Sequence record: PZ379182.1
Direction: 5' to 3' (one strand)
From: a phage
DNA length: 46,134 bases
Part shown: piece after piece, positions 1,240 through 46,134 of the stretch
Layout: each line of letters opens with the position of its first letter
Numbering within the stretch: the stretch's first letter is position 1
Program-made: the position numbers and the translations under genes
Notes under the pieces: model-generated
Told to the model about the DNA's origin: nothing
Seen by the model: only the letters and a program-made list of their open reading frames with translations
The model's database searches: none

Positions 1240-1311
1240 AATCCTCTGTTGTTTTCGATGTAGTAATTATGCCGGATTACTCCGGCGATTGTTTAGCAAT
1301 TCGTGCTATTT
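1240..1311 (-). promoter_or_regulatory. intergenic cassette copy (palindromic motif, GC hairpin, CGAAA box) upstream of a small ORF
   Basis: Minus strand AAATAGCACGAATTGCTAAA, then GCCGGAGTAATCCGGC hairpin, then CATAATTACTACATCGAAAAC, RBS, ATG. Confidence 0.6.
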
Positions 1312-1846
1312 ATTACGTGCATTACCAAAGCAGAGGTTCCATCAATATCACCATCTACAACATGAACGTCAATTTCTCTTGCGCAGACACCGCGAATGTA
1401 GGAGCGGCTATCTCCATCAAAAGTATAGCCAGGCCTAAAAAGTCTAATCAAAGTAACTTCAACCCCTGAATCAATGAGAGTATTAATCTCGCTAGCGAAG
1501 CCACCATCAGCACAGATATAGCAACCATCACCAAGTGATTGCGCTAGCCTTTTACCGAAAACATCATCACCAAAGACTGGCTTCATAACTGACTCACTAA
1601 TCCAAATCATAAATTCACGAACCGTCATTCCACCAAGAAATTCATGTGGTGATTCTTTGTACTCTCGGTCATCGTAATTCTTAATAAATTCATCAAACTC
1701 ATCGCTTGATAGTATTCCTTTTGCAACATTAAACATTGGTGACTTGAATGAAACCTTATCCTTGCAAATTCCAAGATTAACAATGATATCTGCAACTGTA
1801 TCTTTTCCAGCACCAGGGGTGCATTAAGGATGATTAACTTTTTCAT
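1293..1846 (-). CDS. P-loop kinase, polynucleotide-kinase-like; reading frame interrupted near the 5' end
   Basis: ATG at 1846 with GGAGA RBS gives MKKLIILNA in one frame; Walker A PGAGKDT and the rest (track ORF 1293..1736) lie in another frame; the shift maps to a CCCC run. Confidence 0.6.
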
Positions 1847-1847
1847 T

Positions 1848-2322
1848 TTATTCTCCGTGAGATTCGCAGTCTTTTGGTAATTCTTTATATTCACAAACTG
1901 ACATTACAGTATATCCGCAATTCCTTAGGTGACTGATAACATTAGGATTATCCTCAAAGATTATCACACTTGCTTTGTCACCATTACACAAATCATTTAG
2001 CCACATCTCTTTAATGATATAGTCATTTGCTGTTATCCAATCTACTCCTCATATATATTCCATCATAATTAATATTATTATACTGAAGCCATTCAAGCGT
2101 CATACATTCGACTTCGTCACTTCTTGAAGTCATGATGTAAACTGGCGATAACTCAGCTAACGCATTCATCATGTTTATCATTGGAATTATCGGTGAATCT
2201 CCAGAACAGGCTCTATTGTAATCACTCCAACTTGAAGTCAAGTGAAGGTCACTAGATGGTAAGAGGTGGCTTCTATGTTCATTGTTAGCAATAGTTCCAT
2301 CAATATCAAACACGTAAATCAT
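1848..2322 (-). CDS. HAD-family phosphatase (Pnk 3'-phosphatase-like); reading frame interrupted
   Basis: Track ORF 2023..2322 has HAD motif I (FDIDGTIA) and motif II (IMTSRS); a C-terminal part with a FEDNP motif continues in another frame to a TAA just before the kinase ATG. Confidence 0.5.
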
Positions 2323-2395
2323 TACAACTCCTCATCTCGTTATCGTTTATTCATTTTGCCTCAATCCTTTGAGGCTTTATTAACAAAAAGTGCTA

Positions 2396-3529
2396 TTACT
2401 TAAACATTTCAGGTCGGCAAGTGAATCGACCAACTTCACCGTACTCTGAGCTATAGATAATTACTGAGGCCTGACGATAAGAGCGATACCCTCCGTTTGC
2501 GCTGTACGCATCTTTAGCACCCAACTGACCGTGTGACTCATCAATTCCAAGATTACCCTCAGTAACCGTCTGATGATGATAATGGCCACTATGTGTATAA
2601 ACGTATTCAGCATTACCAAATGCTTTGCGATGGTCGCGCGCAAGAGTTGAAAGACGAGTGTCAGGCTTTCGCAATTCATGACCATGGCAGTAACCCAACA
2701 ATGTTTTACCAAACTCCGTCACATGAAGAGCGGCTGGTGAGGCATCAACATTTACACGAGGCTCATCCATGTAGAAGGCAGCCATTGCAGCTCGAAGCCA
2801 AATCATCCCAGAAAGGTCGTGGTTGCCTGGTATAATCTGAACCTCAACCTCTTTATGCTTGTCAAGCATCTTACTGACTGCGCGGCGAGTTGCACGAACA
2901 GCTACGTAGACAAGTTTATGATAACGGCTATCTTGATCAAGTACGTGCTTGCTGGTTGGAGTTACAGCTTCCATTCCATCCGAGTGAAGGAAGTCTCCAC
3001 CAATCAGTAATACGGCTTTTGATGAATTCGGGGCCTTAGCAACTGCATAATCAAAGTATTGGTTAAGCACTCGCTCTGCAATTTCTGTACTGTAGTTCTC
3101 CCCACACTCTGCATGGTGAGCCATTGCGCCAATATGCATATCAAACACGGGGTAGAGGCTCAAGGTGTCCTCATAGCTTGATTCACTGAGTGGTTTCGGA
3201 GTCTCTCGAGGGAGCTCATCTGTAAGCGCCTGAACAATCTGCTGAAGCATCTCTTCTTGTTTCTGTTCGTCGATGGAAGTTTTAACCCAGCGCAGCTTCT
3301 CATTACCATCCGCATCAATCATTGTTGAAGTGCCTTTAACAAGATAGCCATCAGGAACTAGCTTCTTGATGCCTTCATTACCATGCCCAACCCCACTCTT
3401 AGCCAACTTGCTACGACGAAGCTCAACGTTTCGAATGTTCATTCCGTACTTCTCTGCAATCGCCTTGTTAGTCAGGCCGTTTTTCAGTTCTTCGATCAAC
3501 TGCTCGTTGGTAATCTTTGCTGCTGCCAT
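2396..3529 (-). CDS. calcineurin-like metallophosphoesterase with N-terminal helix-turn-helix domain
   Basis: 377 aa; motifs DMH, GDFLH, GNHD, GH, GHYHH of the metallophosphoesterase superfamily; N-terminal HTH-like segment. Confidence 0.8.
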   Translation of the reverse strand: MAAAKITNEQLIEELKNGLTNKAIAEKYGMNIRNVELRRSKLAKSGVGHGNEGIKKLVPDGYLVKGTSTMIDADGNEKLRWVKTSIDEQKQEEMLQQIVQALTDELPRETPKPLSESSYEDTLSLYPVFDMHIGAMAHHAECGENYSTEIAERVLNQYFDYAVAKAPNSSKAVLLIGGDFLHSDGMEAVTPTSKHVLDQDSRYHKLVYVAVRATRRAVSKMLDKHKEVEVQIIPGNHDLSGMIWLRAAMAAFYMDEPRVNVDASPAALHVTEFGKTLLGYCHGHELRKPDTRLSTLARDHRKAFGNAEYVYTHSGHYHHQTVTEGNLGIDESHGQLGAKDAYSANGGYRSYRQASVIIYSSEYGEVGRFTCRPEMFK

Positions 3530-3610
3530 TTTTAAGTCCTTAGTTCATCACGATAAAATATAAGATAGTAAAGCTAACCAGTGGTGCTAATGCTACTAGG
3601 GCTACGTACC

Positions 3611-3862
3611 TCATTCAACCTCTTTTAACCAGAAATCCAACAAATCAGCACTAATTGCTAATTTTTGGTCCATGTCTGTCATGCACAGATTACCGCACGC
3701 TGGAGAGTAGTAAATCTGTACCCATTTACCGTCCTTCGTCTTCGCGTTAACATCCACATAGTCAGGTGGAAACCAGTCATCAATAGGTATCGCTCTAAAC
3801 CTGGCTCCGCTACTACCATGCACTAAATCATAATGCTTTGGCTGGAAATCTAATCCAAACAT
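3611..3862 (-). CDS. hypothetical protein
   Basis: 83-aa ORF co-oriented with the leftward operon. Confidence 0.45.
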   Translation of the reverse strand: MFGLDFQPKHYDLVHGSSGARFRAIPIDDWFPPDYVDVNAKTKDGKWVQIYYSPACGNLCMTDMDQKLAISADLLDFWLKEVE

Positions 3863-3880
3863 AATTAACCCTTCGTTATC

Positions 3881-4108
3881 TTAAATTTGAATCCCTGTCT
3901 CTTTCAGGAACTCATTCGTGTTTATCGTGACGCCAGGTTTAACACTGAGATACTTGCGCGGCCTTTCATCCATGTACGTAAACTTACCGTTGAAGATGAC
4001 ACTGATATCTTTTATATCGAAGTACTTAGATATCATCTTAATGTCGTCCTGAATGCCAGCCTCTGCGCAGTGGGCCCAGACTGCGGCCCGTCCTGTTTCA
4101 ACTATCAT
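3881..4108 (-). CDS. hypothetical protein
   Basis: 75-aa ORF co-oriented with neighbours. Confidence 0.4.
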   Translation of the reverse strand: MIVETGRAAVWAHCAEAGIQDDIKMISKYFDIKDISVIFNGKFTYMDERPRKYLSVKPGVTINTNEFLKETGIQI

Positions 4109-4263
4109 AAGCCGTATGCCAATTTCAGGTATTCACGCGCACACATCCAATGACTCATTCTGATTGAAACTCAACTGCATCAACTCAGTATAAATGTTGG
4201 GCAATCCTAAACATCTCCTTATCTACGATTTTCATTATTCAAAATCCTCCGGGCAATCTTTTT

Positions 4264-4458
4264 TCATTTCCGCAATGTCTGCAACCATGCGGTCGCGCCA
4301 TGTTTCGATGTCCGTTCGCAAGTAATCTTCTTCAAAACTGTAATCAAGGCATCCAGGCTAAATCCCATAACATCACCTTTATAACCAGCATTGTGTAGCT
4401 CCTGAACCGCCATCGCCTGAAATAGTTCCCATTGTTTGTCAAATGTTAAAATTGCCAT
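4264..4458 (-). CDS. hypothetical protein; 3' part appears to continue in another frame
   Basis: 64-aa ORF; a protein-like continuation (DYSFEEDYLRTDIETWRDRMVADIAEMKKDCPEDFE) is readable in a second frame downstream to about 4190. Confidence 0.35.
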   Translation of the reverse strand: MAILTFDKQWELFQAMAVQELHNAGYKGDVMGFSLDALITVLKKITCERTSKHGATAWLQTLRK

Positions 4459-4463
4459 TACTC

Positions 4464-4658
4464 TTATACCTCATCAAATTTTTCGCCGAATTCGTTTTTA
4501 ACAGTTTCCAGATCATATCTGTAAGTTGGGCTAACTTCGAATGCATATGTGCAGTCTTCAATGTCAACCAAAACATAACCATCTTCAGTTACTTGCATCT
4601 CGTAGATGTAGCCAGTCTTGCGTGATTCGTAGAATTTACCAGTATAGATAGTAGCCAT
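4464..4658 (-). CDS. hypothetical protein
   Basis: 64-aa ORF; AGAGAGAAAG RBS region; preceded by intergenic cassette copy at 4680-4742. Confidence 0.5.
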   Translation of the reverse strand: MATIYTGKFYESRKTGYIYEMQVTEDGYVLVDIEDCTYAFEVSPTYRYDLETVKNEFGEKFDEV

Positions 4659-4679
4659 TTTCTTTCTCTCTTTGTGTGT

Positions 4680-4742
4680 TTCGTTTCGATGAGTTGATAA
4701 TACACCAACTCACCAATTCGTCTTTAGCAATTCGTGCTATTT
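4680..4742 (-). promoter_or_regulatory. intergenic cassette copy
   Basis: Minus strand AAATAGCACGAATTGCTAAAG ... TATTATCAACTCATCGAAACGAAAC then RBS. Confidence 0.6.
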
Positions 4743-5006
4743 TCTTATCATCTCTGCGAATGCCGCAAGAAAACCCTCTCTTCCATAAGCCACCGCTGCG
4801 AAACCGCCTGATTCCCTTACGCTTTTTAGGAATGACTTTTGCTCATTGCTAACTGGGCTTGCTTGCGTTTTACCAGCCCTCTTTAACTCTATGGCGCCAA
4901 ATGGATAACCGCCACGCAATGACTCAGGTATCAGAAATAAGCAGTCTGACACACCTTTGAGAAGCCCCTTGGCTTGGTCTTTCCTTGCTTGGCCAATGCT
5001 CTTCAT
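4737..5006 (-). CDS. VRR-NUC domain nuclease (PD-(D/E)xK fold)
   Basis: Track ORF 4737..5036 begins at a TTG; first ATG at about 5006; IPESLRGGYPFGAIELK resembles the VRR-NUC core. Confidence 0.6.
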   Translation of the reverse strand: MKSIGQARKDQAKGLLKGVSDCLFLIPESLRGGYPFGAIELKRAGKTQASPVSNEQKSFLKSVRESGGFAAVAYGREGFLAAFAEMIRK

Positions 5007-5159
5007 TGATTCATTAACTCGTGTGCCAATAGACAATCTGAGGGTAATTGATACTTAACCCAGTCAGAGCAAAATATTTGTTCGTCATCTTCCTTTGGGC
5101 ATGACTTTACAGGGCCGCCGTAGAACTCGAGGTAATCAATTTTGTCTGTAATTTTCATG
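4998..5159 (-). CDS. hypothetical small Cys-containing protein (about 53 aa)
   Basis: ORF read by eye (MKITDKIDYLEFYGGPVKSCPKEDDEQIFCSDW...); below track cut-off; coordinates approximate. Confidence 0.25.
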
Positions 5160-5393
5160 TTAATCCTCCATCGTGAATGATTTGTTGGCGATAATGTCTT
5201 GAGACTTCTGGTTTTTACGGTGTGTGATTCTCAATGGGGCACGGAATAGATGTGCATTTGTCATAATCATTCTAGCATTACGCAATCTGCCAATTCTGAA
5301 TGCCTCAGTCCTGTTCTCGATGTGTGTTGAGCAGAAACGCCTTCCATTTAACAGAGCAAACGCGATGGTCTGATTCAGGGAAGAATGTTTCAT
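5160..5393 (-). CDS. hypothetical basic protein
   Basis: 77-aa ORF; start overlaps helicase stop; Arg-rich, could be spurious. Confidence 0.3.
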   Translation of the reverse strand: MKHSSLNQTIAFALLNGRRFCSTHIENRTEAFRIGRLRNARMIMTNAHLFRAPLRITHRKNQKSQDIIANKSFTMED

Positions 5394-7159
5394 AAGCTCG
5401 GAATCTTATCTCCACTATGAGCCATAACCTCATATGAAGCAACAATCCCTGACTGGTTCTTTGTTAACCCAATCTTGAAGTCATAAACTCGCAACCAGTC
5501 CCCCTTACGATACATTTTTCCTGATAACTTAGCATTCGGGTCTATGAGCATCTCACCACAGCATCTGCAATTCTTAGCTGCAATATCATTCTTCTCACCG
5601 CATCCTTTCTTAATGATAGCTTTGGTCTGTGGGTCCGCTATATCTTCACACAGTCTAAACTGAAAGAAGTGCTCACAGCGCTTCCAGTCAATTACGTTAT
5701 TGCAGCGCCTGGCTAATGGAGAGTTCACATAAGAGCATACCTGACAGATTCTTGGCTCATCACCACGCTTTCTTGCTGACCTAAATTTCTGGTCTTGTAC
5801 CTCTTCTATAATTGGGTCGAAGTAAAGTTCAGCCATATCATCAAGCGTTCCAGCAAAATCAAGAACAACATGGTCATCTTTTACCATTCCAGCTTCTTTG
5901 TGCTTCTTCTTAAGGATACGCATACCACGACCAAGCAACTGAATGAGTAGAGTAATGCTACCAACCTTCCTCAGGATAATGCTTGTATCCCACGGGGGGC
6001 AGTTTACGCCAGTTGTGAGGCAACCAATCTGAAATATGAACTTATATTCTCCGTTGGCTGCTTTCTCAAGTATCTCCCTACGCTTTTTCTCACCTGTAGA
6101 GTCAGTAACTATGGCCCAAGTAACACCTTTAGGTAGCGCGCTCAGCCGCTTCAATCACAATGCTGTTTTCCAGCGCAAGTTACCAATGCAGCATTCCTTG
6201 TTTCCATAAACTTAGCAGCAAATCCCATTATCTTTTGTGTCATCGTTTGGTTTTCGTGAATCTTTGCAGCCATCGCATCCATTTCTTTCTTGCTGAAGTC
6301 CTTAACCCCATCACTTCCATCAGGAGTGAACTCACTAAGGTCGTAGCCCAAATCACCAACTTCACCGTAGACAGTAGGAACAACGAACCCCAAGTCAACA
6401 AGGTAGCTGGTTGGCACTTGCATTACAGTTTTGCGCCAGAATCCACGGACATTTGGGTTACTAACTACAATGTGGTCGTTGTTACGGTACGGGCTACCAG
6501 TTAACCCAAAGATACGAAGTTCGCGACCGTACTTCTCCTTGCATCGACGCTTCATTTCGGTAATGATTAACGTGTATTGCGCGCGACCAGTGCCAAGCAA
6601 GCCCGGTATTCACACCATCCTTAAAGACCATCTCACCCTTCTTCGTGCTCATCTGCTCGAATGTTTCCTCATTCTCTTCAGCTTCTACGATATCCATATG
6701 GTCAACCATATGACATTCATCTATCGCAATAACGGCAGGAACATAGTCACCAAGGCCCTTAAACAAGCCGTTAGCAGCTGTGCCCTCACTAGCCACTATG
6801 GTTGGGTAGTAAACTGATTTAACGTTAAGGCCAGCGCAATAGACGCTATTACGGATGCCGAAGTTACGAAGCTCTTCTGAGTTCTGGCTGATTATCTCTG
6901 ACTGGCGAGAAAGAACCATATAAGGAAGCCCAAGCTGCTCCATGCGCTTACCAATCATAGCAAGAATAATTGTCTTACCCGCAGACACCGAGAGGTCTGC
7001 GATAAATGGGGCCTCGTACTTTCCAATAGCCTTTCCGATTGCATCAAATGTCACGCACTGGAACTCGTAAGGTGTTATCTCTCCAAACTGATAATCTTTC
7101 TGAATCTGTTTAATTCTTTCTTTATCGAAATTTGCAACCAGCTTCTCGATAGGCAACAT
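5390..7159 (-). CDS. superfamily-2 DNA helicase (DEAD/DEAH-box type); reading frame interrupted twice
   Basis: Track ORFs 6494..7159 (motif I SVSAGKT, motif II DECH), 6151..6600 (LTGSPYR, motif IV-like ALVTCAGKQH) and 5390..6154 (motif V TTGVNCP, motif VI QLLGRGMR) are consecutive parts of one helicase in different frames; the two downstream track ORFs begin at TTG right after stops in their own frame. Confidence 0.7.
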
Positions 7160-7176
7160 ATCTAAATTCCTATAAA

Positions 7177-7205
7177 AATTGTCTTGTAGCGTTTAATTGA
7201 GTACA
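7177..7205 (+). promoter_or_regulatory. candidate sigma70-type promoter for rightward regulator/primase operon
   Basis: TTGTCT, 17-nt spacer, TACAAT about 55 nt upstream of the 7261 ATG. Confidence 0.35.
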
Positions 7206-7260
7206 ATACTACCATCAAATCGGAATGACTTTTAACAAAAAATGCTATTGAGGTAATGAA

Positions 7261-7743
7261 ATGAGCGCAATTGACAAGCGAACCATTAACGGTAACAACG
7301 GAACAGTCCGCACCGAAGACAAAAAGCAACGGAAACGACCTTCAGGTTACTACGTTTTAAAAGATGAAGTAAGAGCCGGACTACGCGCACGGCTTGAGAT
7401 GATCCTTGATTTCTTCGGCACAAAGGCAAATATCGCAAAGCAGTTAAAGGTGACACCTCAGGCTGTAGAAGAATGGTTTAAGCGTGGGATGATTTCTGCG
7501 CGTGGCGCTCAGTTGTCGCACAACTACTATAAGCGAAATGGAGAAGGTTTTCGCGCTACATTCTGCCGACCAGATCTGCAATTCGACGGTAACGGGAAAC
7601 CGCTAACTCTACGTTGCAAGAAGCGTCATATGCTGCGTGTTGTTACTGAGGCTGAGCTAGCAACTAAACCAGAGTGTCGCTCATGGCGCAAGATTAAGGC
7701 CGCTAACGAAGCAGCACGAAAAGATAAAGAGCAAGGGAAATAG
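7261..7743 (+). CDS. helix-turn-helix DNA-binding protein (Cro/YdaS-like putative transcriptional regulator)
   Basis: 160 aa; segment TKANIAKQLKVTPQAVEEWFKRG typical of a Cro/CI-type HTH. Confidence 0.6.
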   Translation: MSAIDKRTINGNNGTVRTEDKKQRKRPSGYYVLKDEVRAGLRARLEMILDFFGTKANIAKQLKVTPQAVEEWFKRGMISARGAQLSHNYYKRNGEGFRATFCRPDLQFDGNGKPLTLRCKKRHMLRVVTEAELATKPECRSWRKIKAANEAARKDKEQGK

Positions 7744-25275: not shown

Positions 25276-25840
25276 AAGTCAAAAACAATAAATCTCAGTA
25301 TGTATAATACATTAACACTTCGACTTTGGGGGTAAAATGTTTAAATATTTGTTTGATTATGATGGAATGAAATTGATATGGAAAAACCCAACATCACCTA
25401 GATTCACAAAGGGCGACGTTGCGGGAACTAAGCATAAGAGAGGATACATTCAAGTTTGCTTTAATAGGAAGCTATACCTTGCTCATAGGATAATATGGGA
25501 GATGCATCATGGCGAGATACCTGAAGGGATGCAGATTGACCATGTAAATCAGGACAAATCAGATAACAGGATTTCAAACCTAAGGCTAGTCACGCAGCAG
25601 GAAAACAAAAAGAACAAACCAAAGCAAGTAAGAAACTCTAGCGGAGTTAATGGTGTATCTTGGAATAAATCAAATGGAAAATGGCAGGTAAGGATAGGTG
25701 TAGATGGAAAAGATGTTCATCTTGGGTATTTTGATAACATTTCAGACGCTAAAAAAGCAAGATTCGATGCTGACTTTAGATTTAAATACCATGAAAATCA
25801 CGGTAACAAAAAGCGCCAGTAGGCGCTTTATTTTTTATCT
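25276..25840 (+). mobile_element. free-standing homing endonuclease cassette (promoter-like sequence, HNH-AP2 gene, terminator-like hairpin) inserted in the tail module
   Basis: TATAAT at about 25310 and GGGGGTAAAATG RBS upstream; AGCGCC-AGTA-GGCGCT hairpin plus T-run at the 3' end; opposite strand to every flanking gene. Confidence 0.6.
25337..25822 (+). CDS. HNH homing endonuclease with AP2 DNA-binding domain
   Basis: 161 aa; HNH motif region IDHVNQDKSDNRISNLRLVTQQEN and AP2-like GVSWNKSNGKWQVRIGVDGKDVHLGYF; antisense to the tail operon. Confidence 0.8.
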   Translation: MFKYLFDYDGMKLIWKNPTSPRFTKGDVAGTKHKRGYIQVCFNRKLYLAHRIIWEMHHGEIPEGMQIDHVNQDKSDNRISNLRLVTQQENKKNKPKQVRNSSGVNGVSWNKSNGKWQVRIGVDGKDVHLGYFDNISDAKKARFDADFRFKYHENHGNKKRQ

Positions 25841-37129: not shown

Positions 37130-37205
37130 TGGTGTTCCGCACTGGACTCGAACCAGTAACTAAGACTTAGGAGGTCTTTGCGTTATCCTGTTACGCCAGC
37201 AGAAC
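37130..37205 (-). tRNA. tRNA-Arg (anticodon CCU, reads AGG)
   Basis: 76 nt folded by eye: acceptor GTTCTGC/GCGGAAC (one G-U), D-arm GCGT/ACGC, anticodon stem AAGAC/GTCTT with loop CUCCUAA, T-arm ACTGG-TTCGAGT-CCAGT, encoded CCA. Confidence 0.8.
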
Positions 37206-37591: not shown

Positions 37592-38390
37592 CAAAACTCC
37601 TCAGTTATAAGCATCTTGCCACAATCTTTGCACTCGTAGAATGCACATGCTTTCACCAACTAATAGACTTGGTTTTGTTGACTCGTGGTACTTGCATCGT
37701 TTAGCGCTTTAATGTCAAAATCGTTAATGATTTGATGTGAACACGTAAACGTAGCGATGCTTGTGATTGATTTCTTTATTATTCATAAAGGCTATTCCCA
37801 TTCTGATCATGGCCTACGCGACATTTTCTATAACCAGCAATCCACACAAATTTGTCTCGAGCAATTAGTGTCGAAACCGGCCCCCACACTTGAGTAATCA
37901 GCGCTGCCACTACCTTATCATCTTTCTTCTTTGCGCCCAAGTTTGCCGTATTCGTCATTCAGCTTATCAGCCTGTCGCTTGACTGCGTTAAAGTATGCGT
38001 CGTCTAATCCGAACATTATTCATCATCCTCCTCGCATGCTATGAGACTATCGCAATTATCACGGCATCGCAAATGCCTTTGGTGCTTTAGCTATTCGTGG
38101 CTGTAAATCAAGTCAGCAATGACTTAACAAATTCGATCTGGAGTAACCATCTCATTCGCTTCGTATGGCTCTATGCAATCTCTTCGTTGTATGAATGAGT
38201 TGAACGTTATCATGGCAAATCCGATGCGCTGTCATGCAATTACGCAATTCGTGCGTATGCCATTTCTTATCTTCACGCTCTTTCCATAGATTTCAGTTAG
38301 CTCGTAAGTACATTCATGGCATCTTCGCCAGTCTTAGCCTCATCCATGCATCCGTGCAGGCCCACTGGCTTGGTGTTTCGTAGTTATCCA

Positions 38391-38516
38391 TTAGTAAACA
38401 AGAGCCTCGTGGTTTGCTATGTAAAGCTCCTCATCGTGCTTGTTTTTAATGAAGTACCCATTGCCATCTTCGCTAGGCTCTGCATAGAATACGTCGCCAT
38501 GCTTTAAGCGCGCCAT
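38391..38516 (-). CDS. hypothetical small protein (41 aa)
   Basis: Read by eye: GGTGAGGA RBS then MARLKHGDVFYAEPSEDGNGYFIKNKHDEELYIANHEALVY; below track cut-off. Confidence 0.3.
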   Translation of the reverse strand: MARLKHGDVFYAEPSEDGNGYFIKNKHDEELYIANHEALVY

Positions 38517-38571
38517 ATAATCATCCTCACCAATGATATACGATCTTAATCATGCAATCACCTCACTTAAA

Positions 38572-38706
38572 TTATAGTTCGTTAGAATCGCTTTTAGCGT
38601 CATCTACGGCTGCTGAAATCATGTAAATAATCATGAAGCCCAATGACCAGAGTAACCATGGCAATGCTTCAACCAGAAATTCACCCATCATTAACCCAGT
38701 ATGCAT
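38572..38706 (-). CDS. small membrane protein (about 44 aa)
   Basis: Track ORF 38572..38760; internal ATG at about 38706 follows GAGGAT; one hydrophobic helix LVEALPWLLWSLGFMIIYMI. Confidence 0.4.
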   Translation of the reverse strand: MHTGLMMGEFLVEALPWLLWSLGFMIIYMISAAVDDAKSDSNEL

Positions 38707-38716
38707 TTCTCTATCC

Positions 38717-39139
38717 TCAGATTTTGTTAATTTGCTCAAACTTCTCAAACCAGAAAACAACTGGATCCTCCACTATGGAGATGAGGCCGAACCGCTCTGC
38801 CGTGCGAAAATTCATGCTGCTCTTACGCCCGCGAGCTACTTGAAGAGACACCTGTTCCCTGAACATTTCAAGGGAATAGCAAGTTTTCATGAGGTTGCAT
38901 GGAGCACATGCAGGGTAAAGGTTTTCCATTCGATCAGCTTGTGGTCGATTAAACTCACCTGTCGCCTTCAGCTTGAAAGTTCCTTTCTCCGCTGCCTTCA
39001 TGCATACCTCAGATTTACGTAGCACCGGTTCAACATGGTCAGCATGCCAGCCTTTCTCAGGTAGTTCACACCCACAATAAGCGCAGCGACCACCGAACTT
39101 GCCCTTCAACTCTTCCCTTTGAGATTTGCTTAATTTCAT
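38717..39139 (-). CDS. HNH endonuclease (zinc-ribbon type)
   Basis: 140 aa; CAYCGC...H..H...CAPCN motif arrangement. Confidence 0.8.
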   Translation of the reverse strand: MKLSKSQREELKGKFGGRCAYCGCELPEKGWHADHVEPVLRKSEVCMKAAEKGTFKLKATGEFNRPQADRMENLYPACAPCNLMKTCYSLEMFREQVSLQVARGRKSSMNFRTAERFGLISIVEDPVVFWFEKFEQINKI

Positions 39140-39149
39140 TTTATAAACC

Positions 39150-39329
39150 TTAAATTTTATTCAATTGATCAAGAATCTCGAAAGCCAGTTCTCGAGCTTG
39201 CTCTTCATTTAAGTGGATAGTATGAACCTTAGGTTCATCATGCAAACCGAAAGCCTGGGCGATGATAAATGTTGTGTAACCATCGAAGTTGTTAGCCTGG
39301 AGCTTAGGGTTACTTTGCTGTAATTTCAT
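39150..39329 (-). CDS. hypothetical protein (about 59 aa)
   Basis: ORF read by eye (MKLQQSNPKLQANNFDGYTTFIIAQAFGLHDEPK...); start overlaps upstream stop. Confidence 0.35.
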   Translation of the reverse strand: MKLQQSNPKLQANNFDGYTTFIIAQAFGLHDEPKVHTIHLNEEQARELAFEILDQLNKI

Positions 39330-39544
39330 TCTTCGACCACCTTGTACTCGCCTTCTTCAAAACTAACCATCTGTCCTATTGATACTAACTCAGTATCACG
39401 AATCGCTCGAGCTGATAAGCTACCACACCCGAACCGACCGGTTACTTCTAATACGTCACCAACTCTTAAACCCGCATGTGCTTCAAGCTGTCAGAACGCC
39501 TTACTTCTGGTATGTAGTTCACGTCGATGAATTTTAATTTTCAT
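39326..39544 (-). CDS. hypothetical protein with an in-frame TGA at codon 18
   Basis: MKIKIHRRELHTRSKAF-TGA-QLEAHAGLRVGDVLEVTGRFGCGSLSARAIRDTELVSIGQMVSFEEGEYKVVEE read in one frame; coordinates approximate. Confidence 0.3.
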
Positions 39545-39770
39545 ATCTATACTCCATCTCGTTGTCGATGTGGTAATTATGCCGGATTTCTCCGGCAATT
39601 GTTTATGCAATGTCATGCTATTCACCGAGTTTCATCACGAAGAACATAACACTCAACACCTCTTCAAGAACGTCCAGCTGAGATTTCGCATCATTCGTAA
39701 TACTCATAAGCTCGAATATGCTTAACGCTGTTGAATTTTCCTGTATAGCTCATGTCCTGAACGTAATAAA

Positions 39771-40004
39771 TCATTTCTTTGTCGCCTTATCCCAGTTAGT
39801 GAGGTAGCCAGCATTCTGGATGCTTAGAGCTTCGTACTGGCGAGATGACTCGAAGTCTGATACGTCGAACTGCTGGTTGTTGATTTGTGCGCCAGTCTCT
39901 TTTACGACACGCATCTGCTCAAAGGTCAGCGTTGAATGCATTTGCTTCATGATGATTGATTTAAGGATTGCTGCATCTTTCTCTGACAGGTTAATTGTAA
40001 TCAT
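39771..40004 (-). CDS. hypothetical protein
   Basis: 77-aa ORF in the leftward early series. Confidence 0.45.
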   Translation of the reverse strand: MITINLSEKDAAILKSIIMKQMHSTLTFEQMRVVKETGAQINNQQFDVSDFESSRQYEALSIQNAGYLTNWDKATKK

Positions 40005-40234
40005 TTCGTTTGTTCCAGGTAAGTTTTCATCTTGTTCAGTGAGTCTATTGCGTCATCAAGGTCTGTAATTACGTCCTTGTGGCCTCGTAAACCCATGCAT
40101 AGAAGCTTTTTGATTGCATGCTGACACGCCGGGTCTGTAACGTTGAACGCTGATAGCGTGCGATACACATCAACAATAGCACGCTCGCCATTAAGCCCGA
40201 TAATCTCTCTTTCATATTTGCTCCTTTCCATCAC
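40001..40234 (-). CDS. hypothetical protein
   Basis: 77-aa ORF; stop/start overlap with the downstream gene. Confidence 0.45.
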   Translation of the reverse strand: MMERSKYEREIIGLNGERAIVDVYRTLSAFNVTDPACQHAIKKLLCMGLRGHKDVITDLDDAIDSLNKMKTYLEQTK

Positions 40235-40307
40235 ATCCTCTTTTGCTTTGCTTCAATAAGGCCACTATATCAAATGGCCTTGCGGAAGGTTTAGCAATTC
40301 GTGCTAT

Positions 40308-40493
40308 TCAAAACTTAACATCAATTATGACTTCAACCATCTCCTGCCCAAGCCGGTAGGAGTCGCCCCAAAGAAGTAGTCCCATAAACTCATCCTTACT
40401 AAAAGTGTTGGCATTTACAGTTCTAAGATAGCCACGATGGATAACAGTATCGCCAATCTTAACTTCGCTCTTATGTACCATTTTAGTTTTCAT
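40308..40493 (-). CDS. hypothetical protein
   Basis: 61-aa ORF; stop immediately precedes a cassette motif copy. Confidence 0.45.
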   Translation of the reverse strand: MKTKMVHKSEVKIGDTVIHRGYLRTVNANTFSKDEFMGLLLWGDSYRLGQEMVEVIIDVKF

Positions 40494-40548
40494 GCTGTTT
40501 CTCCAGTTGTCTTATTGAGGCACCCCGCGAGATGCCTTGTAAGATAAC

Positions 40549-40737
40549 TCAGTAGCAGGTAGCCAGGAAGTCGGCGATACCTTTTGAGGTTGCTTCCGGC
40601 ATACTACGTACTGCAACATCGTAACCAGCCTCAACCTTTGCAATCGCTGACTCTTCGTTGTATCCGAACATTGTCAGGATGGTGATTACGTTTTCTTTAT
40701 TCAGGACTTTAAGTTCTTTAGTGATGCGCTTAGCCAT
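40549..40737 (-). CDS. hypothetical protein
   Basis: Track ORF 40549..40809; ATG at about 40737 follows AAGGA and lies downstream of cassette copy 40745-40821. Confidence 0.45.
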   Translation of the reverse strand: MAKRITKELKVLNKENVITILTMFGYNEESAIAKVEAGYDVAVRSMPEATSKGIADFLATCY

Positions 40738-40744
40738 TTTCGTT

Positions 40745-40821
40745 TTCCTTTGTGCCTCTCGTTTCGATGAGATAATTATGCCATCCATGGCATTATATGC
40801 GTTAGGCAAAAAGTGCTATTT
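40745..40821 (-). promoter_or_regulatory. intergenic cassette copy
   Basis: Minus strand AAATAGCACTTTTTGCCTAA, TGCCATGGATGGCA hairpin, CATAATTATCTCATCGAAACGAGAGG. Confidence 0.55.
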
Positions 40822-40926
40822 CCATTCAGTAGTAATTTAGCTTTCCGATATAAATCCATAGCCACCCCAACCTCATCCTCATCCTCACTGTACCGCGGAT
40901 GGTATGGTAGTAGACTACCATACCCA

Positions 40927-41448
40927 CTATTTAGTCTCCTTAATCATTTCTTGGTATGCGTTAATCATTGATACTGCACCCTTAAGTTCATCACCTTCAA
41001 GACCAGCGACGCTTGGTGATAGTTTCAACAATCGAGCCTTGAACCTTTCAATGGTAGCCGCCTCCTTCTCTTGCTCTGCTTTGCTTCTTGAGCCGGATTT
41101 TACAGCGCCAGGAACCAGGCTAAGTGATGCGCAGTATGTCTCACTCTCGCCCTCAAAGTCGGTAAAACTAAGTGAGAACCTTGAGCGCACGTCAGCCGCC
41201 TTAATCTCAGGCATTCGGCTTACGGTGTTTGAAACGTATGACGCTTTTAGTTTTGGCATGTGGTATTCACCACCAGGTAGAAACTCCTCACCACTTAGCG
41301 ATACGAACGTCTCACGACTCATGCCGAAGTATTGACGAGCAATCATGGTCACAGGGACTGTGCACACTTTGTCTTCTGACTTGAGCGCCTGACTCGCCAT
41401 GTATCGAATGATTTCACCCAAACTTACTGCTTCTTTATGTTCTGACAT
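40927..41448 (-). CDS. hypothetical protein, first gene of the long leftward operon
   Basis: 173-aa ORF; AGGAG RBS 8 nt before the ATG. Confidence 0.55.
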   Translation of the reverse strand: MSEHKEAVSLGEIIRYMASQALKSEDKVCTVPVTMIARQYFGMSRETFVSLSGEEFLPGGEYHMPKLKASYVSNTVSRMPEIKAADVRSRFSLSFTDFEGESETYCASLSLVPGAVKSGSRSKAEQEKEAATIERFKARLLKLSPSVAGLEGDELKGAVSMINAYQEMIKETK

Positions 41449-45973: not shown

Positions 45974-46006
45974 AAATAGCCCCATTACGGGGCTTTTTTG
46001 TTTTTC
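45974..46006. terminator. bidirectional intrinsic terminator
   Basis: AGCCCC-ATTAC-GGGGCT flanked by A-run and T-run. Confidence 0.7.
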
Positions 46007-46134
46007 CTGAATATCATTAAGAGCAGAATGATGATGACGCAAAACATGATTCCACTCCCAATCCACGGGATTGCAGACGAATCATTGTTGGTGATTTCAA
46101 TCTTCTCAGCCGTGATTGTTGATGCCTTGATTGA
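45985..46134 (-). CDS. hypothetical membrane protein, C-terminal fragment (gene continues beyond window)
   Basis: Frame open from the window edge to a TAA in the terminator loop; C-terminal hydrophobic segment IMFCVIIILLLMIF. Confidence 0.3.
   Translation of the reverse strand, partial: SIKASTITAEKIEITNNDSSAIPWIGSGIMFCVIIILLLMIFRKNKKAP

Follow-up and report, generated by a model that had tools for sequence, protein, structure and literature searches.

The window, the whole stretch of 46,134 nt deposited as sequence record PZ379182.1, is a complete, circularly permuted phage genome, and a spanin gene spans both of its ends in frame. The region addressed here is of the T1/Rtp-like coliphage type (Drexlerviridae, Braunvirinae) and contains a helicase gene on the minus strand; its neighbours, the primase, regulator, and VRR-NUC genes, are conserved members of the T1/Rtp-like replication module. 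When positions 5200-7400 were searched by megablast, 97 phage records were matched, 87 of which had a query coverage of at least 80%; the best relatives were ES and AN_ECEAS (89.3%), followed by SU57, ZL19, IME253, and Rtp (83-84%). The matched records annotate one feature at this place, either an "ATP-dependent helicase" or a "DNA helicase." In Rtp the counterpart is rtp53 (1995 nt; gp53, YP_398997.1, 664 aa, "ATP-dependent helicase"), a gene that is conserved in Drexlerviridae and whose record mentions similarity to gp22 of phage T1. Beside it lie the divergent regulator rtp52 and the primase rtp51, and the VRR-NUC gene rtp54 follows it after two bases.

As given, the helicase gene of the window contains no single uninterrupted open reading frame; it is divided into six frame segments, the shortest of 6 and 23 codons, and stops are present in every frame. 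A tblastn search with Rtp gp53 returned five consecutive high-scoring pairs in frames -3, -1, -3, -1, and -2 with E = 0, a succession far beyond chance, which indicated that one gene is read here over several frames. By nucleotide alignment with Rtp, SU57, ES, and AN_ECEAS, we located five extra single bases, which delimit the following features.

5160..7159, minus strand: the whole helicase gene, 2000 nt as given, including the stop codon at 5160-5162
6599..7159, minus strand: segment 1, in the frame of the ATG at 7159, with motifs I (SVSAGKT) and II (DECH)
6598, minus strand: extra base 1, the G in CTT[G]CTTGG; the C at 6601 is an equivalent placement
6155..6597, minus strand: segment 2, in a shifted frame, with motifs III (LTGSPYR) and IV (ALVTCAGKQH)
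6154, minus strand: extra base 2, one T of GA[T]TGAAG
6136..6142, minus strand: extra base 3, one base in GAGCGCGC, of ambiguous placement in a messy patch with a cluster of substitutions
5405..6135, minus strand: segment 3, which returns to the frame of segment 1, with motifs V (TTGVNCP) and VI (QLLGRGMR) and a Cys-rich zinc-finger region
5404, minus strand: extra base 4, the A in GATAAG[A]TTCC; 5407 is an equivalent placement
5335..5403, minus strand: segment 4, 23 codons (FRAYETFFPESDHRVCSVKWKAF) in the frame of the open reading frame 5305..5445
5334, minus strand: extra base 5, the C in GTTT[C]TGCTC
5160..5333, minus strand: segment 5, the last 57 codons and the stop (CSTHIENRTEAF...TMED*) in the frame of the open reading frame 5160..5393

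The original prediction had described a helicase gene read across three reading frames between 5390 and 7159. Its three minus-strand open reading frames (6494..7159, 6151..6600, and 5390..6154) do exist at these positions and carry the pairs of motifs assigned to them, and the first and third share a frame from which the middle one is offset. The gene, however, does not end at 5390; it runs on to the stop at 5160-5162 through further frame changes at approximately 5404 and 5334, and its remaining C-terminal parts lie in the open reading frames 5305..5445 and 5160..5393. The proposal of single-base indels was thus right in kind and short in number, as five insertions were found instead of two. 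In particular, the second junction is made up of two +1 insertions, at approximately 6154 and 6136-6142 and 12-18 nt apart, and it is for this reason that the first and third open reading frames coincide in frame. The prediction had also placed the junctions at homopolymers or near-homopolymers. At the first junction (CCGGGC) this description fails, because the CCGGG run is equally long in ES and AN_ECEAS; overall, four of the five extra bases are not extensions of a homopolymer, and such a context is unsupported at these sites.

Deletion of the five bases yielded an open reading frame of 1995 nt encoding 664 aa, which aligned without gaps over 664 of 664 residues with Rtp gp53 at 92.8% identity. 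By segment, segment 1 showed 98.9% amino acid identity with residues 1-187 of the Rtp protein, segment 2 showed 98.7% identity with the AN_ECEAS helicase, and segment 5 showed 91.7% identity with Rtp residues 605-664. When the frames are followed, SF2 motifs I-VI appear in canonical order from 7159 to 5900. The corrected protein matched Pfam Helicase_C (36.9 bits; cut-off 23.5) and PHROG 16 "DNA helicase" (E = 3e-77), and phmmer aligned it with Escherichia coli RadD (PDB 6JDE chain B, 6jde_B) at E = 2e-28. As in the DNA repair helicase RadD (YejH), its SF2 core precedes a Cys-rich zinc-finger region and a C-terminal domain. In contrast to RadD, it lies far below the equivalog cut-off of the RadD profile (NCBIfam NF053632), scoring 173.6 bits over residues 193-659 against a cut-off of 720, and we therefore regarded it as a RadD-like phage helicase and not as a RadD equivalog. 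Judged by its sequence, the gene is an ordinary 664-codon gene, a homologue of Rtp gp53 encoding a RadD-like SF2 helicase. It agrees with Rtp gp53 in genomic position, in its length of 664 codons once corrected, and in the order of its motifs, and differs from it in the five extra bases and the resulting six frame segments. The apparent multi-frame layout is very probably no biological feature, and we place the gene in the Rtp gp53 helicase family as a standard member.

We addressed the conservation of the breaks in an alignment of 14 sequences, comprising the window, Rtp, SU57, nine IMG/VR contigs, and ES and AN_ECEAS with an intein removed. Each of the five extra bases formed a column occupied in the window alone and was absent from all 13 relatives, 12 of which read as one uninterrupted 664-codon helicase frame (10 of the 11 intein-free relatives have an uninterrupted 664-aa open reading frame as they stand). 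The single exception, L015, bears an unrelated tandem duplication of approximately 115 nt. The helicase relatives in IMG/VR showed 83-93% amino acid identity and were all already-known relatives; a near-identical genome that could serve as a direct control was not found there. None of seven proteins of the window, the intact regulator among them, had an exact counterpart in a collection of 15 billion proteins. Exact patterns of the junction at 6598, whether they contained the extra base or lacked it, had no match in IMG/VR or the JGI metagenomes, and a megablast search with positions 4200-7200 returned no match among complete E. coli genomes or among plasmids. Searches of the literature yielded nothing pertinent on frameshifted helicases or on known poor-quality T1-like genomes.

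The sequence removed from ES and AN_ECEAS before alignment is an insertion of 1140 bp that lies exactly between the DE and the CH of motif II. It starts with CLTGDTMI..., has a TxxH block, and ends with ...HNFIADGVVAHN|C, and given these hallmarks we read it as an intein. The middle of the insertion contains a 235-aa LAGLIDADG_2 open reading frame in another frame (Pfam 30 bits; cut-off 25). The N-terminal open reading frame stops after approximately 121 intein residues, and the C-terminal part restarts at a Met located 41-53 residues ahead of the splice junction. "Fractured genes" that combine a split intein with a free-standing homing endonuclease have been described previously (Dassa et al. 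2009, PMC2677866), and the layout of the ES/AN_ECEAS helicase is alike. This locus may represent a "fractured gene" of the split-intein kind, here in a cultured coliphage; alternatively, it would be a contiguous intein with two frameshift errors. The two genomes are identical over the 6.3 kb compared and therefore do not constitute independent evidence. The window has neither an intein nor a homing-endonuclease insertion at the corresponding site, which reads GATGAA|TGTCAT (DE|CH), and, unlike those of a "fractured gene," its interruptions are single bases.

To describe selection on the helicase gene, Nei-Gojobori dN/dS values were calculated in the corrected frame for the five measurable segments. 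Compared with AN_ECEAS, dN/dS was 0.033, 0.133, 0.054, about 0, and 0.009 by segment and 0.048 overall; compared with Rtp, it was 0.033 overall. Of 64 window-specific substitutions, 48 fell in the third codon position and 49 were synonymous, and 6 of the 15 that changed an amino acid were located in codons 335-343, the messy patch of insertions 2 and 3. No sign of relaxed constraint was observed after the first break, as dN/dS against AN_ECEAS remained at 0.01-0.13 in every measurable segment. These results indicated that the gene is not decaying.

Frame breaks of the same kind were observed in at least 10 further conserved genes of the window (at least 11 in all). We compared the whole window with AN_ECEAS by blastn and counted uncompensated indels that were not a multiple of 3 and lay in regions of at least 85% local identity; 32 +1 insertions and 5 -1 deletions were recorded, and approximately 24 of the 32 insertions were not extensions of homopolymers. 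The insertions were concentrated in two patches, 2029-6598 and 37648-40797. Within the latter, positions 38387-39460 matched AN_ECEAS without gaps at approximately 99.5% identity, and this near-perfect stretch was flanked on either side (38267-38386 and 39464-39621) by at least six single-base insertions together with substitutions; the densest patches contained six insertions in 70 bp. The 33 insertion sites across the genome had no sequence context in common, with no position carrying more than 0.3 bit, and A, C, G, and T were the inserted base in 6, 9, 9, and 9 cases, respectively.

The neighbour of the helicase gene is one of the affected genes.

4737..5158, minus strand: VRR-NUC nuclease gene, homologue of Rtp gp54, with extra bases found only in the window at 5051 and 5018

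Without these two bases, it is an open reading frame of 139 aa that aligns without gaps with AN_ECEAS and Rtp. Likewise, removal of the bases at 4371 and 4357, which are also confined to the window, restored a 73-aa protein in an rtp56-like gene, and the polynucleotide kinase gene contains one extra base at 2029. In the gene next to the kinase, which encodes a P-loop protein, a -1 deletion was located at approximately 1820 in a C5 run inside the Walker A motif. For two genes, the polarity of the changes was checked against two genomes: neither AN_ECEAS nor Rtp has the extra bases of an rtp15-like gene, and those of the homologue of AN_ECEAS CDS 40915-41127 occur in neither AN_ECEAS nor TR2. 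Taking out bases present only in the window likewise restored these two genes and the polynucleotide kinase gene. A tblastn search with Rtp and AN_ECEAS proteins revealed frame changes in the homologue of a 41-aa AN_ECEAS protein as well, and further small early genes were scrambled or truncated. Single-frame matches were obtained for all large structural genes, namely those for TerL, the portal, the protease, the capsid, the tape measure, the J-like tail protein, and the tail fibre, and also for a second helicase, the primase, and the exonucleases.

On the basis of these sequence comparisons, we consider with high confidence that the frame breaks represent errors in the sequence and are not the outcome of pseudogenisation, recoding, or mutation of the phage. 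We infer that the extra bases arose during the generation of the data; the five spurious single-base insertions in the helicase gene would have been introduced in sequencing, in assembly, or in later handling of the record. An error is favoured because the lesions are unique to this record, affect many unrelated conserved genes, lie in dense patches together with substitutions, and leave purifying selection untouched. Thus, where the original prediction had offered sequencing error or true pseudogenisation, the former is sustained by the defects that only the window shows in at least 10 other genes, and the latter runs counter to the purifying selection evident in every segment. Possible sources of error would be stretches covered by a single read or at low coverage, unpolished long reads, or the consensus of a mixed population. 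Weighing against an error, insertions outnumber deletions outside homopolymers, which is atypical of 454, Ion Torrent, and nanopore consensus errors. We rejected homopolymer miscalls as the origin of the four non-homopolymer helicase sites and of the corresponding majority of insertions genome-wide, and the patchy insertions of random, mostly non-homopolymer bases appear to resemble the former sources more than homopolymer miscalling.

Two further observations do not follow directly from an error. At 6598, the insertion stands alone and cleanly within approximately 490 nt that are otherwise 100% identical to AN_ECEAS; this setting counts in favour of an error, but, taken alone, the insertion could equally be a genuine recent mutation. 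In addition, the breaks are limited to early and replication regions and the structural module is clean, so an error requires an extra assumption, which could be uneven coverage, cloning bias, or a mixed population. We also considered whether sequences of different origin had been joined. A mosaic or recombination junction at 6598 was rejected, as the site lies inside the block identical to AN_ECEAS; such a junction is possible in the patch at 6154/6136, where identity falls. More speculatively, a mixed-population consensus might have merged two alleles, CTT and TTG into CTTG at 6598 and TTT/TTC into TTTC at 5334; a merge of this type did not fit the sites at 5404 or 6154.

Alternatively, the frameshifts might be genuine, and the window would then represent a variant that is defective or in decay, its helicase and several other early genes having been inactivated. 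A variant of this kind could persist in a mixed lysate when complemented by a co-infecting intact phage. The breaks are, after all, present in the sequence as given, the clean single change at 6598 is compatible with a mutation, and damage to early and replication regions beside intact virion genes is the pattern expected of a genome that needs only to be packaged. However, five independent +1 changes would have to be reconciled, in one gene of 2 kb, with a dN/dS of approximately 0.05 and a strong third-position bias, and given these two measures the genuine breaks would all need to have arisen extremely recently. Indels in nature tend toward deletions and homopolymers, whereas the +1 insertions of the window outnumber the -1 deletions by 32 to 5 and most of their sites are not homopolymers. 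Moreover, clusters of six insertions and accompanying substitutions per 70 bp, located beside near-perfect matches, look like poor base-calling. We therefore consider genuine frameshifts in a defective variant unlikely, and still less probable is the case in which the extra bases are real in a viable phage.

Recoding, which the original prediction had offered as another route to a full-length helicase, would require multiple programmed +1 shifts in which the ribosome or the RNA polymerase passes over one base per site. Skipping one base at each of the five places would indeed rebuild a fully conserved protein, and as in programmed ribosomal frameshifting the coding information carries on in another frame. 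Known programmed frameshifts (the +1 shift of prfB, the -1 shift of dnaX, and the -1 shift of the phage tail chaperone G/GT) are conserved, use a slippery sequence with a stimulator, and occur once per gene. The window, in contrast, has five unconserved sites without a motif in the helicase gene and dozens more in other genes. The shifts were observed in none of the 13 relatives, and the helicase sites (CTT[G]CTT, GA[T]TGA, GAGCGCGC, AAG[A]TTC, and TTT[C]TGC) have no common motif, slippery sequence, adjacent stop, or rare codon; transcriptional slippage would need a longer homopolymer than any of them offers. A scan of the whole window at the Rfam gathering thresholds detected no frameshift element at these sites or elsewhere and one tRNA only. 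We rejected quadruplet decoding by a phage tRNA, as no quadruplet is common to the sites and the sole tRNA, a tRNA-Arg(CCT), is an ordinary one. Furthermore, five successive shifts in the helicase, together with approximately 30 in other genes, would give a negligible yield. Recoding is accordingly extremely improbable.

A naturally split helicase, in which separate polypeptides assemble into an active enzyme, is just as implausible as recoding: the three open reading frames first noted do part the motifs roughly by subdomain, and the same gene is truly interrupted in ES and AN_ECEAS by the intein at motif II, but the window lacks an intein at DE|CH, its breaks cut conserved, contiguous sequence into six segments (including the two very short ones), and the fragments have no ATG starts or Shine-Dalgarno sequences where these would be required, segment 3 having no Met before motif VI.

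Taken together, the main import of the finding that the breaks are very probably errors concerns data quality. This copy of the genome is unsuited as it stands for gene calling or for the building of protein families, and it is no basis for asserting that genes are split, pseudogenised, or recoded. The likely errors artificially break up at least 11 of its conserved genes, and the helicase, the VRR-NUC nuclease, and the kinase would each become several "hypothetical proteins." If the bases were nevertheless real and the phage viable, the phage would have to tolerate approximately 35 unconserved +1 changes without a motif in at least 11 genes, or bypass them when these genes are expressed, which would imply a previously unknown, context-independent skipping or editing of single bases on early transcripts; in a milder version, the real bases would belong to a packaged defective genome kept by a helper phage. 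Nothing in the evidence supports a new recoding mechanism. One real point of interest at this locus is the intein element with an out-of-frame endonuclease open reading frame in the helicase gene of ES and AN_ECEAS.

Single-base changes that break reading frames were observed in genes of the window other than the helicase gene, as listed here.

1296-2322, minus strand: polynucleotide kinase gene and adjoining P-loop gene
4238-4458: rtp56-like gene, with two extra bases (4371 and 4357)
4737-5158, minus strand: VRR-NUC nuclease gene (Rtp gp54 homologue), read as ORFs 5003..5158 and 4737..5036

In particular, the VRR-NUC gene was broken into its two ORFs by extra bases at 5051 and 5018, both absent from the compared relatives, and removal of these two bases restored a 139-aa ORF that aligned without gaps with its counterparts in AN_ECEAS and in the reference phage Rtp. 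The polynucleotide kinase gene contained an extra base at 2029, and the P-loop gene a -1 deletion at about 1820, in a C5 run within the Walker A motif (ILNAPPGAGKDT); both changes were likewise found only in the window. Single-base insertions, together with substitutions, were also crowded in 37648-40797, chiefly in 38267-38386 and 39464-39621, where several small early genes were broken. The densest of these patches held up to six insertions per 70 bp, and they adjoined a gap-free stretch of about 1 kb with approximately 99.5% identity to AN_ECEAS.

The helicase genes of three relatives carried structures of their own.

L002:2181-3320 (ES, OR466728) and L003:2181-3320 (AN_ECEAS, PP944860): intein element of 1140 bp, in helicase motif II
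L015, about 2540-2790 (IMG/VR contig IMGVR_UViG_2974610512_000001): about 115 nt duplicated in tandem

The intein element, which was identical in the ES and AN_ECEAS records and was not annotated as an intein by the depositors of either, separates the DE from the CH of motif II, at the position that corresponds to 6715/6716 in the window. Its N-terminal and C-terminal splicing blocks both share the frame of the helicase, and the 235-aa LAGLIDADG ORF that it contains lies in a different frame. The element can be explained in one of two ways: as a split intein accompanied by a free-standing homing endonuclease (a "fractured gene"), or as a contiguous intein that carries two frameshift errors. 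In L015, the duplication caused the peptide PYAIITDSTGEKKRREILSDCQTGKYKIIFQIGCLTTGVSVPP to be encoded twice and shifted the frame, which cut the helicase ORF to 393 aa; this duplication may be another assembly artefact.

Three further features of the genome were noted.

45988-46134 and 1-237: spanin gene (Rtp gp65 homologue)
37130-37205, minus strand: tRNA-Arg (anticodon CCT)
25340-25804, plus strand: HNH-endonuclease-like ORF

The spanin gene reads in frame across the end and start of the window, so that the window represents a whole genome, circularly permuted and opened within this gene. The tRNA-Arg, detected with both ARAGORN and Rfam, was the only tRNA and the only RNA family match in the window. 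The HNH-endonuclease-like ORF lies between the tape-measure and tail chaperone genes, on the opposite strand, and showed 43-48% identity to Rtp gp20 and gp40; the HNH genes of Rtp occupy other genomic positions.

The affinities of the window helicase gene itself changed along its length. The first 187 codons (7159-6599) showed 98.9% protein identity to Rtp, with diverged synonymous sites; about 490 nt (6703-6213) were identical to AN_ECEAS; and beyond this block the identity fell sharply, at about 6170-6080. The gene is a mosaic, and the succession of an Rtp-like N-terminal part, an AN_ECEAS-identical block and a sharp drop in identity indicates recent recombination among Braunvirinae phages.
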